Origin: Escherichia coli
GTDB lineage: Bacteria; Pseudomonadota; Gammaproteobacteria; Enterobacterales; Enterobacteriaceae
Reading direction: 5' to 3' (one strand)
Length of the DNA: 64,000 bases
NCBI RefSeq assembly: GCF_041248615.1
Contig: NZ_CP158425.1
Each line of letters opens with the position of its first letter. The stretch's first letter is position 1. Below, piece by piece: positions 54,001 to 64,000 of this stretch. Position numbers: made by a program.

Positions 54001-57000
54001 CTTCTGTACCAAGCGACGCAGGTCATCGAGGTTGCGGGCCAGCCGATCCATGCTGTGCACCACCACTGTATCGCCTTCGCGGACGAAGCTCAGCAGCGCT
54101 TCGAGCTGGGGGCGCTGGGTGTCCTTGCCCGATGCCTTGTCGGTGAACACCTTGCTCACCTGGGTTTGTTCCAGCTGGCGTTCCGGGTTCTGGTCAAAGC
54201 TGCTGACCCGGACGTAGCCGATGCGGTGCCCCTGCACGATGTCTCCTTGGTTGAAGGCGGCTTAAGTGCACTTTCTGTTCCGTTGTGCCTCAAAGCCCAT
54301 TTCTGTCAGGCTGAAATCTATAACCTTCGCGGGCATGTGTCAAAAAATGGGAAAGCAGACTCTATTCTGACGAAGCGGCGCGGCCCTGCCTGACATCAAG
54401 TTAGGGTATGCCTCAACCTGACGGCGGCGAATCACAAGCGTCCGGTTTGACGCTGGTTTCGGTCGCAGTGCTGGCCCGCGCCTGGAAGCGCTGATAGCAC
54501 TCCAGCCCGCAGAAATGCTCCACGTACTCGGCCCCTTCCGGCGTGAAGGCGGCATCGAGCGGGATTTCCTTGCAGCACACGCAGCAACTGGTGCTCGGTT
54601 CATTGGCGTTCATGGTGGTGTTCCTCCATTGGTTGACGAAGCCGACGAAGGCCGCCGCCGGCATCGGCCTGGCGAACAGGAAACCCTGCACCGTGTCGCA
54701 ACCCGCCTGCCGCAACCACGCAAGGCAGTCGGGTGTTTCCACACCCTCGGCTACCACCTCCATTGTCGTTTTCAGAAGACGGCTGCACTGAACGTCAGAA
54801 GCCGACTGCACTATAGCAGCGGAGGGGTTGGATCCATCAGGCAACGACGGGCTGCTGCCGGCCATCAGCGGACGCAGGGAGGACTTTCCGCAACCGGCCG
54901 TTCGATGCGGCACCGATGGCCTTCGCGCAGGGGTAGTGAATCCGCCAGGATTGACTTGCGCTGCCCTACCTCTCACTAGTGAGGGGCGGCAGCGCATCAA
55001 GCGGTGAGCGCACTCCGGCACCGCCAACTTTCAGCACATGCGTGTAAATCATCGTCGTAGAGACGTCGGAATGGCCGAGCAGATCCTGCACGGTTCGAAT
55101 GTCGTAACCGCTGCGGAGCAAGGCCGTCGCGAACGAGTGGCGGAGGGTGTGCGGTGTGGCGGGCTTCGTGATGCCTGCTTGTTCTACGGCACGTTTGAAG
55201 GCGCGCTGAAAGGTCTGGTCATACATGTGATGGCGACGCACGACACCGCTCCGTGGATCGGTCGAATGCGTGTGCTGCGCAAAAACCCAGAACCACGGCC
55301 AGGAATGCCCGGCGCGCGGATACTTCCGCTCAAGGGCGTCGGGAAGCGCAACGCCGCTGCGGCCCTCGGCCTGGTCCTTCAGCCACCATGCCCGTGCACG
55401 CGACAGCTGCTCGCGCAGGCTGGGTGCCAAGCTCTCGGGTAACATCAAGGCCCGATCCTTGGAGCCCTTGCCCTCCCGCACGATGATCGTGCCGTGATCG
55501 AAATCCAGATCCTTGACCCGCAGTTGCAAACCCTCACTGATCCGCATGCCCGTTCCATACAGAAGCTGGGCGAACAAACGATGCTCGCCTTCCAGAAAAC
55601 CGAGGATGCGAACCACTTCATCCGGGGTCAGCACCACCGGCAAGCGCCGCGACGGCCGAGGTCTTCCGATCTCCTGAAGCCAGGGCAGATCCGTGCACAG
55701 CACCTTGCCGTAGAAGAACAGCAAGGCCGCCAATGCCTGACGATGCGTGGAGACCGAAACCTTGCGCTCGTTCGCCAGCCAGGACAGAAATGCCTCGACT
55801 TCGCTGCTGCCCAAGGTTGCCGGGTGACGCACACCGTGGAAACGGATGAAGGCACGAACCCAGTGGACATAAGCCTGTTCGGTTCGTAAACTGTAATGCA
55901 AGTAGCGTATGCGCTCACGCAACTGGTCCAGAACCTTGACCGAACGCAGCGGTGGTAACGGCGCAGTGGCGGTTTTCATGGCTTGTTATGACTGTTTTTT
56001 TGTACAGTCTATGCCTCGAGCATCCAAGCAGCAAGCGCGTTACGCCGTGGGTCGATGTTTGATGTTATGGAGCAGCAACGATGTTACGCAGCAGGGCAGT
56101 CGCCCTAAAACAAAGTTGTACGTAGAACTCGAAGGCAATTTAAGTATGAAAGAAAAGGTAGTTGTTGATAAAGCGATTTCACTCTATACCGAATCATTCG
56201 GCGACCCGGCCCATGAACCCATTATTCTGATCATGGGGGCAATGTCGTCTGCGGTGTGGTGGCCTGATGAGTTTTGTTCCCAACTTGCCAAAATGGGTCG
56301 CTATGTGATCCGGTACGACCACCGTGATACCGGGAAATCAACAAGCTATGAGCCAGGTCAGGCTCCATATTCCGTTGAAGAATTAGCAGATGATGTGGTT
56401 CGCGTCATTGATGGTTATGGTCTGGAAGCTGCTCATTTAGTCGGCATGTCTTTGGGGGGATTTCTTTCCCAGCTTGTAGCTCTCAAGTATCCGAAACGTG
56501 TGAAGAGCTTGACGCTGATTGCTTCAGAACGGCTTGCAGATGCAGATCCGGATATGCCCGCTTTTGATCCTGCCATCATTGAGTATCACCAACGGGCGGA
56601 ATCGCTGGATTGGTCTGATAGAGATGCTGTCGTCGCGTATCAGGTCGGAGCGTGGCGAATCAACTCAGGTACTGCGCATGCTTTTGACGCTGAGAAGATA
56701 CAAAACATCGCTGAGTTAAATTTTGATCGCACTCCGAATATCCTGACAACATTCAACCACACTACTTTAGGTGGTGGCGAGAGATGGCTCGGGAGATTAA
56801 ATGAGATAGCTGTACCAACTTTGATCATTCACGGCACGGAGGATCCTGTACTTCCTTATGTGCATGGGTTGGCACTGAAAGATGCGATTCGTGGTTCAAA
56901 AATGCTGACACTCGAAGGCACGGGACATGAGTTGCATCATGAAGACTGGCCGAGGATTATCCAGGCGATTAAGGGGCAAACGTCATAGCTATCGGTTGCA

Positions 57001-63000: not shown

Positions 63001-64000
63001 TTCGTTTCAACTTTAGTAGCTGCACCAATTCGCTGAACGGAGTGCATCAACACAAGTTTGCAATCTGACTTTGCCAAGCCTGAATAAATCTCAGGATAAG
63101 GAAAACCTTGAATATCATTAATAAAATCAACCTTTTGTTCTATGCAAAAACTCTGAACCTCAGGTTTAAATGTATCAACAGAAATAGAAATGCCTTTTTC
63201 TTTTAAAGCCTTAATGACAGGTTTGAGTCTTTTGATTTCTTCCACAACGCCCACTTCAGTTGTATCAGGATTACTGGAAGCGGCTCCCAAATCAATCACA
63301 TCTGCTCCATCTTCAACCAAATGCAGAGCATGCTCAATTGCCTTATCTGTATCTAAATAAAGTCCTCCATCGGAAAAACTATCGGTGGTTATATTTACGA
63401 TTCCAAAAATCTTGCTCATATCATTTTGCTTTGATTACAAAAGTAGCATTTATCTTAATTGACTAATTATCACTTACGCAAATTGACACATTTTCCCTAT
63501 CTTTGCAGCCTAATTTTTTTGTTTTAATTCATTATGAAAACTGATAGGAACTGTCATTTCGAGTTTTTCGCGGTTTTGGGTCAAAATTCGGTTTTTTCCC
63601 CGAACTACGACTGTTTTCGCACCCCGAACAACTAATCCAATCAGAATTTTCCGGCAACGCCGACTCCAAGAAGTGTAATTCCAGTCTATTTCTGCCGTCA
63701 ACCCCTGATTCGCGTTAATGCGACAAAGCTCAAACACATAACTCCCCCACGAAGCCATATAAACTCCGATTTCGAGGTGTTATCCTGTTCCGCATAAACT
63801 TCGTTTTTGGGTATTATACCTACACCAAAGCAAGAAGATTATGGGTCCAAACTTCATTTGTATATTTTGCAAACAAATATCTGCCTGTCATATCTGTCGG
63901 AGTGTGGTGATACTCCTTTGCATTAAAAATGCGCTGATAAAAGGTAGTTCAGCAAAAGGCGAAACGCCAATAAATATATCTATAACCGGTTTCGCCCGTT

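Follow-up and report, generated by a model that had tools for sequence, protein, structure and literature searches.

An atypical sul3-associated class 1 integron on an Escherichia coli IncHI2A plasmid, with sul3 in a probable ISCR28-captured Bacteroidales fragment

Two questions are raised by the sulfonamide resistance locus at the right end of a 64,000-nucleotide stretch of Escherichia coli DNA (NCBI RefSeq assembly GCF_041248615.1, contig NZ_CP158425.1; hereafter the window): what kind of integron it is, and from where its terminal gene, sul3, was recruited. With a probability of about 95%, positions 54764-63419 and onward are a standard sul3-associated ("atypical") class 1 integron whose sul3 module is a Bacteroidales chromosome fragment captured by the element ISCR28. 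The integron, of a multidrug-resistance type familiar from plasmids associated with livestock, occupies a Tn21-type position on an IncHI2A plasmid and is already known in every detail, its array, the strength of its PcH1 promoter and the leader and attenuation of its cmlA gene all being published. The donor-flank and ISCR28 anatomy around sul3 may be the sole new content.

An earlier note on this DNA, made from the sequence alone, had read the order intI1-estX-psp-aadA2-cmlA1-aadA1-qacH-IS256-family fragment-sul3; each element was found where it had been placed, and the RefSeq annotation of matching plasmids agrees. The cassette boundaries and promoter hexamers show no difference from those of reference integrons (same junctions, same PcH1, 100% identity). 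Many complete plasmids of Escherichia, Salmonella, Klebsiella and Vibrio match at 100% identity the 9237 bp that run from IRi to the last position of the window, so the array is not a product of chance, and at least 438 PLSDB records plus 159 complete E. coli genomes hold at least 80% of this stretch. Misassembly or a chimera was dropped as an explanation because the same sequence occurs in hundreds of independent complete plasmids. Published tables list the identical array intI1-estX-psp-aadA2-cmlA1-aadA1-qacH-IS440-sul3, with PcH1, in numerous isolates of E. coli and Proteus (PMC4129628, PMC6491665). The layout that marks the sul3 type is present, namely a qacH/L cassette, then the IS440 fragment and sul3, then orf-mef(B)-IS26, the last part lying beyond the window.

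The evidence on the origin of sul3 lies in the DNA to the right of the last cassette, where the following features were read:

61695-62344, minus strand, IS256-family (IS440) transposase fragment, truncated at both ends (NF033543, profile positions 31-244 of 338; pseudogene note by PGAP)
62345-62627, plus strand, 3' remnant of an outer-membrane beta-barrel gene of the putative donor, convergent with sul3 (open reading frame (ORF) 62350-62625, 91 amino acids; C-terminus of Pfam OMP_b-brl_2)
62628-63419, minus strand, sul3, sulfonamide-insensitive dihydropteroate synthase (NF000296, 613.6 bits; Phe177 motif DPGMGFFLG)
63420-63540, minus strand, intergenic region and promoter of the putative donor with its first two metG codons (ATGAAA, plus strand, 63535-63540), 93-95% identical in nucleotides to loci L009, L010 and L013
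63541-63835, minus strand, ISCR28 (ISEc28) remnant consisting of the last ~15 bp of the transposase gene and the oriIS end, its terminus ...GACAGTTCCTATCAGT adjoining the metG stump; 98.6% identical to L013
63888-64000, minus strand, start of a truncated GrpB-family gene, cut by the window end (annotation)

Lying on the minus strand, sul3 converges with the cassettes, and G+C content drops from ~0.55 to 0.37 at about 62350. The IS440 fragment and sul3 take the place of the usual 3'-conserved segment. The window corresponds to positions 64001-128000 of plasmid p14408_M1 from E. coli NRZ14408 (NZ_LT599829.1, IncHI2A, 238 kb), and beyond its end this source plasmid continues with GrpB', an SDR gene, a truncated mef(B) and IS26.

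Relatives of Sul3 were searched for across 5.8 billion proteins, and FolP proteins 90%, 86% and 74-81% identical in amino acids were found. The 90% relative is encoded on a 5.5-kb contig (L010), the 86% relative on an 806-kb contig (L009) and an 81% relative on a 25-kb contig (L093). On all three, folP and metG diverge, a full-length OMP_b-brl_2 gene converges with folP from the other side, and folP stands in a housekeeping block that continues with FKBP, a LUD/Fe-S gene, pssA, psd, cdsA and ftsH; the metG-folP-OMP order is also seen in a Paludibacteraceae metagenome-assembled genome (MAG; L014) whose FolP is 71% identical. DNA homology between plasmid and chromosome spans 63540 (the second metG codon) to ~62345 (the start of the IS440 fragment) and is at background level outside, with nucleotide identities of 93-95% in the intergenic region, 82-85% in the sul3 gene and 79-83% in the last 280 bp of the OMP gene. 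The donor-flank remnants (two metG codons, the intergenic region and 280 bp of the OMP gene) are colinear with L009, L010, L091 and L093. Motifs of the TAnnTTTG type in the sul3 intergenic region would be consistent with promoters of Bacteroidota. Since the plasmid holds mere fragments of the neighbouring genes, the transfer would have run from chromosome to plasmid.

Sul3 is 89.4% identical in amino acids to the L010 protein, which is itself 85.2% identical to that of L009, so that Sul3 nests inside this FolP clade. The chromosomal FolP aligns without gaps to crystallised Sul3 and retains the DPGMGFFLG motif, including Phe177, which has been shown to keep sulfonamides out (PMC10328974). For the MetRS of L009, identity is 89% with proteins of Paludibacteraceae MAGs and 85-86% with those of Bacteroides; placement of L009 in the order Bacteroidales is therefore secure, and in the family Paludibacteraceae tentative. 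A scan of JGI metagenomes with the native-junction pattern returned two contigs alone, both 84.4% identical to the sul3 fragment, and the true donor was not found among them. On these comparisons the lineage of the sul3 donor would be identified and the donor species not.

How the fragment was mobilised is suggested by the 295 bp at 63541-63835, which are 98.6% identical to the L013 segment that follows the stop codon of an intact IS91-family transposase (430 amino acids; NF033538, 132.7 bits; Pfam Y2_Tnp and Zn_Tnp_IS91). On a Salmonella IncC plasmid an identical transposase (100%) is encoded upstream of rmtE, and identity is 99.8% with the copy on pSY153-MDR, where the element has been named ISCR28 and flanks armA (PMC5620268). 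A 243-bp copy of 97.5% identity, labelled deltaISEc28, stands 27 bp upstream of armA in Tn1548-type regions. The same terminus adjoins five unrelated cargos, namely metG'-sul3, OMP'-folP (L013), rmtE, armA (with a variant end) and mef(B). The IS91-family (HUH Y2) transposase is intact in L013 and in plasmids; because only the last ~15 bp of its gene are in the window, what is present here is an ISCR28 remnant and not an active element.

Plasmids with a complete mef(B) carry a second copy of the terminus, 47 bp long, before mef(B)-SDR-GrpB', and it has three single-nucleotide polymorphisms (SNPs) in common with the copy next to sul3. Only the first 59 of 159 profile positions of GrpB are left. 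Seen at 10475-13347 of pP136-2 (G+C 0.39-0.45), and in the window only with the part at 63888-64000, the mef(B)-SDR-GrpB' block has ISCR28 oriIS termini at its borders; it, too, was probably captured from a chromosome. The layout oriIS|mef(B)-SDR-GrpB'-deltaISCR28-oriIS|metG'-sul3-OMP' suggests that ISCR captures took place one after another. In the proposed sequence of events, a 1.19-kb fragment of a Bacteroidales chromosome (metG'-promoter-folP-OMP', 62345-63540) would have been captured at the oriIS end of ISCR28 by rolling-circle transposition, the mef(B)-SDR-GrpB' module would have been captured likewise, and the whole would then have been joined to the integron.

L013 comprises the first 5.2 kb of a 569-kb MAG contig (CALGIJ010000019.1) labelled Desulfobacterales and has the order integrase - 35 metG codons - folP - 125 bp of OMP - ISCR28. 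Its integron integrase is not of class 1 (TIGR02249, 364 bits), its sul3-like folP is 89% identical to Sul3 in amino acids, and its folP fragment, whose breakpoints are unlike those of sul3, points the opposite way from the ISCR28 end. Because its folP fragment is 83% and its ISCR28 end 98.6% identical to the plasmid, and breakpoints and orientation differ, it reads as an independent capture; L013 probably arose by a separate mobilisation and is a candidate for a new mobile variant of sul3. The sul4 module has been described as integron integrase - truncated folK - sul4 - ISCR28 (PMC5732528, PMC12772301), and sul2 is linked with ISCR2 (PMC5732528).

Two further sul3-like genes, identical to each other and 81% identical to Sul3 in amino acids, were seen in non-native contexts on ruminant gut MAG contigs (L011, JAGABS010000084.1; L012, JAFWZH010000107.1). 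One lies beside a DDE transposase gene and an Aminoglyc_resit/Lnu-like nucleotidyltransferase gene, the other beside a truncated UvrD-type helicase gene. The Alphaproteobacteria and Clostridia labels of these 3-4 kb GTDB contigs were not trusted; the sul3-like genes on them stand in mobile-looking surroundings.

The published origin of sul3 is Leptospiraceae, with whose FolP, bearing the Sul motif, Sul3 was grouped at ~50-52% nucleotide identity and with matching G+C content (PMC6335563). Were this correct, the Bacteroidales genes would be distant cousins or secondary recipients, which we consider very unlikely: the identity is ~50-52% only, and the sul3 flanks gave no consistent hits and no usable homology in that study (PMC6335563), whereas FolPs 81-90% identical stand in metG-folP-OMP-FKBP-pssA-psd-cdsA-ftsH synteny on several Bacteroidales contigs, the plasmid retains truncated pieces of those same flanking genes, and Leptospiraceae are absent from the best 80 GTDB loci (all of at least 48% identity). 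Reverse transfer, in which the Bacteroidales loci gained sul3 from plasmids, draws on the fact that sul3-like genes move, as in L013 (89% in amino acids, between an integron integrase and ISCR28) and in L011 and L012 (81%, beside a transposase and a resistance-type nucleotidyltransferase gene). Yet folP in L009, L010, L093 and L014 belongs to a conserved block of housekeeping genes in which its neighbours are full length and mobile genes are absent, divergence among the FolPs is graded, and the plasmid has fragments of the neighbours only; gain from plasmids is thus exceedingly improbable. As to the integron itself, an ordinary sul1-type element (In2-like, as in Tn21) with a normal 3'-conserved segment would fit the left side, where IRi adjoins a Tn21-type urf2/tnpM fragment and a resolvase gene and where intI1 and attI1 are canonical. 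It is refuted by the window sequence itself and has practically no chance of being right, since rightward there is no qacEdelta1-sul1, IRt or tni and qacL is followed by the IS256-family fragment and sul3.

Capture of a Bacteroidales folP by ISCR28 is itself opposed by some of the observations. The best chromosomal relatives reach 82-85% in nucleotides (gene) and 86-90% in amino acids, below the >95% usual for a named donor; taxon assignments of MAGs are imperfect, and the bin that holds the nearest mobile relative is labelled Desulfobacterales; and the order of the capture events is read from anatomy alone. A literature search returned no paper linking sul3 with ISCR28, ISEc28 or Bacteroidales, and did not cover the 2024 paper that defines ISCR28. 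We regard as evenly balanced the combined claim that sul3 is the native Sul-type folP of an uncultured member of the Bacteroidales (nearest named relatives, Paludibacteraceae MAGs), mobilised by ISCR28, and that this is both correct and undescribed. If true, a Bacteroidales origin would replace the Leptospiraceae origin, sul3 would be tied to an ISCR element as sul4 is to ISCR28, and the search for its source, open since the 2003 description, would narrow to anaerobic gut or digester Bacteroidales. One rolling-circle element would then repeatedly recruit sulfonamide-insensitive folP and 16S methylase genes, and the exact junction sequences could be used for fishing the true donor from public read archives.

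The platform into which the cassettes were inserted consists of the following features:

54764-54788, plus strand, IRi, TGTCGTTTTCAGAAGACGGCTGCAC (exact match)
54966-55979, minus strand, intI1, intact, R32_H39 variant, 337 amino acids (NCBIfam IntI1 equivalog NF011946, 799.5 bits against a cut-off of 435; RefSeq WP_000845048.1)
55864-55892, plus strand, Pc promoter, PcH1 variant, TGGACA-N17-TAAACT, without TGN-10 motif (motif reading)
55983-56008, plus strand, P2 in its inactive form, with a 14-bp spacer (motif reading)
56069-56144, plus strand, attI1 (extent of the Rfam RF02912 match, 61.8 bits, gathering score 56); the site itself ends at 56117 with the crossover G|TT (56115-56117)

Residues R32 and H39 were read off the IntI1 sequence, and R32_H39 is the most excision-proficient IntI1 variant (PMC8876359). 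The hexamers of the hybrid Pc promoter (TGGACA/TAAACT) noted earlier are present at 55864-55892, and the "intermediate" cassette expression foreseen from them is a fair description, as the relative strength of PcH1 (220) lies between those of PcW (40) and PcS (1240) (PMC8876359, Table 2); the field nonetheless files PcH1 under weak promoters. With P2 inactive and a TGN-10 motif lacking, modest cassette transcription is expected, and PcH1 would drive moderate-to-weak transcription that falls with distance from the promoter. A CTGT-N8-ACAG box of LexA type at 55992-56007 overlaps P2 and has a putative LexA role. Within attI1 lies a short ORF of the ORF-11 type (56081-56125), whose reading frame continues into the estX cassette; as this first cassette starts GTTGTACGTAG, the ORF has 14 codons here.

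An Rfam scan at a permissive threshold gave the attI1/"AAC_AAD_leader" match, two chance matches and nothing else. The "AAC_AAD_leader / putative aminoglycoside riboswitch" match at 56069-56144 is simply attI1, which here precedes estX. The PLSDB RGI track on NZ_LT599829.1 (p14408_M1, IncHI2A, 238 kb) reports "AAC(6')-Ib7, 100%" over window positions 56011-56988 (attI1 plus estX); there is, however, no aac gene there.

IntI1 (R32_H39) and attI1 together make up the capture platform. Neither the window nor the downstream part of the source plasmid contains IRt, the tni module or the 3'-conserved segment (qacEdelta1-sul1), an absence that defines the "atypical" sul3 type. Having no IRt or tni genes, the platform would lack self-mobility and would be carried along by IS26, Tn21 remnants and the plasmid.

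Gene cassettes were cut at the G|TT of each core site, and proteins were scored against NCBIfam curated cut-offs, which were passed by EstX, the HAD-IB hydrolase, the AadA family, CmlA, AadA1, QacL, the IS256-family transposase and Sul3. The cassettes are listed with their coding sequences (CDS):

56116-57067, plus strand, estX cassette, 952 bp (CDS 56146-56988, attC 56989-57073; NF033124, 660 bits)
57068-57740, plus strand, psp cassette, 673 bp, HAD-IB family hydrolase (CDS 57084-57692, attC 57689-57746; TIGR01490, 112.8 bits; Pfam HAD)
57741-58596, plus strand, aadA2 cassette, 856 bp (CDS 57750-58541, attC 58545-58602; RefSeq WP_001261740.1 AadA2, 100%)
58597-60145, plus strand, cmlA1 cassette, 1549 bp (CDS from GTG 58803-60062, attC 60074-60151; NCBIfam CmlA)
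60146-61001, plus strand, aadA1 cassette, 856 bp (CDS 60155-60946, attC 60950-61007; NF033126, 597.6 bits against a cut-off of 587)
61002-61512, plus strand, qacH (= qacL/qacI) cassette, 511 bp, last of the array (CDS 61116-61448, attC 61461-61518; NF000067 QacL, 227 bits)

The 856-bp and 1549-bp sizes are the standard ones for these cassettes, and the current NCBI name of qacH is qacL. The products of aadA2 and aadA1 would confer streptomycin/spectinomycin adenylylation, and that of qacH/L efflux of quaternary ammonium compounds. The psp product is a HAD-IB hydrolase without a proven resistance role. EstX hydrolyses the 16-membered-ring macrolides tylosin, tilmicosin, tildipirosin and leucomycin A5 by means of Ser102/Asp233/His261 (PMC11214618), a catalytic triad present in full in the window protein; macrolide esterase activity of EstX is by now proven, and the label "putative hydrolase" is outdated.

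The near-identical attC core claimed earlier after psp, aadA1 and qacH was recovered as an exact 35-mer at 57698 (psp) and 61470 (qacH) and a 33-mer at 60961 (aadA1). Compared in pairs, the four short attC sites are identical at 46-54 of 58 positions. Bottom-strand hairpins are predicted in all six attC sites (-16 to -23 kcal/mol, z -2.8 to -6.0), and the core sites of the estX and qacL attC (GTTAGCG and GTTAGTC) deviate from GTTRRRY. The aadA2 and aadA1 cassettes align without gaps over 856 bp at 89.4% identity, their longest identical run being 51 bp (cassette positions 550-600).

Deletion or reshuffling between the aadA genes and between attC sites had been thought plausible, and derivatives present in public plasmids, formed by excision and by homologous recombination, bear this out. 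PLSDB was searched with a synthetic psp-aadA-qacL junction, and the psp-aadA2-qacL adjacency was found in 15 plasmids. Four derivatives were inspected (L004-L007: NZ_PP626394.1, NZ_CP055093.1, NZ_CP012682.1 and NZ_AP027905.1, respectively), all of which have lost cmlA1 and one aadA cassette, two by exact attC excision and two by homologous recombination. Loss solely through IntI1-mediated attC x attC excision, never through homologous recombination between aadA genes, agrees with L005 and L006, in which the aadA2 cassette with its own attC is complete up to the G|TT crossover and is followed by the qacL cassette; this is the predicted signature of IntI1 excision of cmlA1 plus aadA1, and 14 of the 15 psp-aadA2-qacL records fit the excision class as judged by identity value. 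Such exclusivity is highly improbable and stands refuted, both routes being documented: L004 switches from aadA2 type to aadA1 type at cassette positions 800-827, within a 26-bp identity (stop codon and start of attC), and L007 is a dfrA12-orfF-aadA-qacL-IS440-sul3 integron whose single aadA gene, annotated as aadA8/aadA8b-like, is of aadA2 type to position 549 and of aadA1 type from 601. The type switch between these positions places the L007 crossover in the 51-bp longest identical run and yields an aadA8b-like hybrid. A cmlA1-aadA1 deletion variant is published (PMC4129628), and aadA2/aadA1 hybrids are already in the literature.

The start of the cmlA1 cassette holds two further features:

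58675-58704, plus strand, leader ORF ATGAGCACTTCCAAGAACGCAGACAAGTAA (MSTSKNADK*), 9 codons (motif reading)
58705-58810, plus strand, attenuator stem-loops (folding)

According to the account of Stokes and Hall as summarised in PMC8876359, cmlA1 is the classic exception to promoter-less cassettes and brings with it both a promoter and a leader for translation attenuation. The leader ends in KNAD, an established chloramphenicol-dependent arrest peptide in experimental use (PMC10192921). The 9-codon MSTSKNADK leader reported earlier is indeed at 58675-58704, and its reading as chloramphenicol-inducible attenuation agrees with these sources (PMC8876359, PMC10192921). Stalling of leader translation by chloramphenicol would open a structure that hides the cmlA1 ribosome-binding site. 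The GTG start at 58803 is preceded by AAGGAG, and the leader region folds at -52.1 kcal/mol (z = -3.1 against shuffles) with the Shine-Dalgarno sequence and GTG base-paired in the predicted fold. Two results run counter to this account: a crude simulation, in which folding was constrained by a ribosome footprint over codons 5-9 of the leader, did not free the ribosome-binding site, and a sigma-70 consensus scan found Pc, missed the published promoter of the cmlA cassette and gave no more sites than in shuffles. As the folding simulation did not free the site, the attenuation switch rests on the literature.

To the left of IRi the Tn21-type flank is continued by one listed feature:

54413-54763, minus strand, truncated DUF3330/EAL gene of the Tn21-type urf2/tnpM region, abutting IRi (Pfam DUF3330, 3.8e-38; EAL C-terminus; same flank in other records)

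A resolvase gene (53677-54237) lies to the left of this fragment. Over 51090-54763, tet(A)-tetR(A) is joined to an ORF of 198 amino acids (53077-53673), the resolvase gene and the DUF3330/EAL fragment, and this region is a Tn1721/Tn21-type mosaic. No IS26 end was found anywhere in the 64-kb window. Further left, positions 14001-39000 are IncHI2 backbone, shared at 100% identity with many IncHI2 plasmids; its genes include the tellurite-resistance ter genes, one for a HipA-family toxin and one with a VWA domain. In practical terms the integron is a routine and important co-selection platform: one unit couples resistance to macrolides (estX), streptomycin/spectinomycin, chloramphenicol, quaternary ammonium compounds and sulfonamides, and its carriers are conjugative IncHI2 plasmids moving among livestock, food and people.

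Among known systems, In2 of Tn21 shares IRi, intI1, attI1, Pc/P2, aadA-type cassettes and insertion in the urf2/tnpM region with the present integron, which differs in having no qacEdelta1-sul1 3'-conserved segment, IRt or tni remnant, with sul3 on the opposite strand and outside any conserved segment. The cmlA1 leader resembles attenuation leaders of the cat/erm type in being a short ORF, here ending in KNAD, followed by inverted repeats predicted to pair with the start codon and its Shine-Dalgarno sequence; unlike them, it controls an efflux pump and resides in an integron cassette with its own promoter. As in the ISCR28-armA and ISCR28-rmtE units (Tn1548-type, pSY153-MDR), the oriIS terminus ...GTTCCTATCAGT (…CAAA at armA) directly adjoins the cargo, which here is a folP fragment, and the sul3 and mef(B) copies form a three-SNP subtype of their own. 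The sul4 module is alike in joining a chromosomal folP-type gene and the stump of a native neighbour to ISCR28 in an integron-linked setting, a layout that L013 repeats; in the window, by contrast, there is only a 295-bp ISCR28 end, placed upstream of sul3, and the predicted donor belongs to Bacteroidales, not Chloroflexota. The closest counterparts are the known sul3 integrons of pCVM19633_110 (NC_011092.1) and pEC012-1 (NZ_CP119578.1), with the order estX-psp-aadA2-cmlA1-aadA1-qacH-IS440-sul3-orf-mef(B)delta-IS26, to which the whole 9.2 kb is identical; from other sul3-integron records the present one differs in the left flank and host plasmid alone, with IS26 in some of them and Tn21/Tn1721 remnants here.

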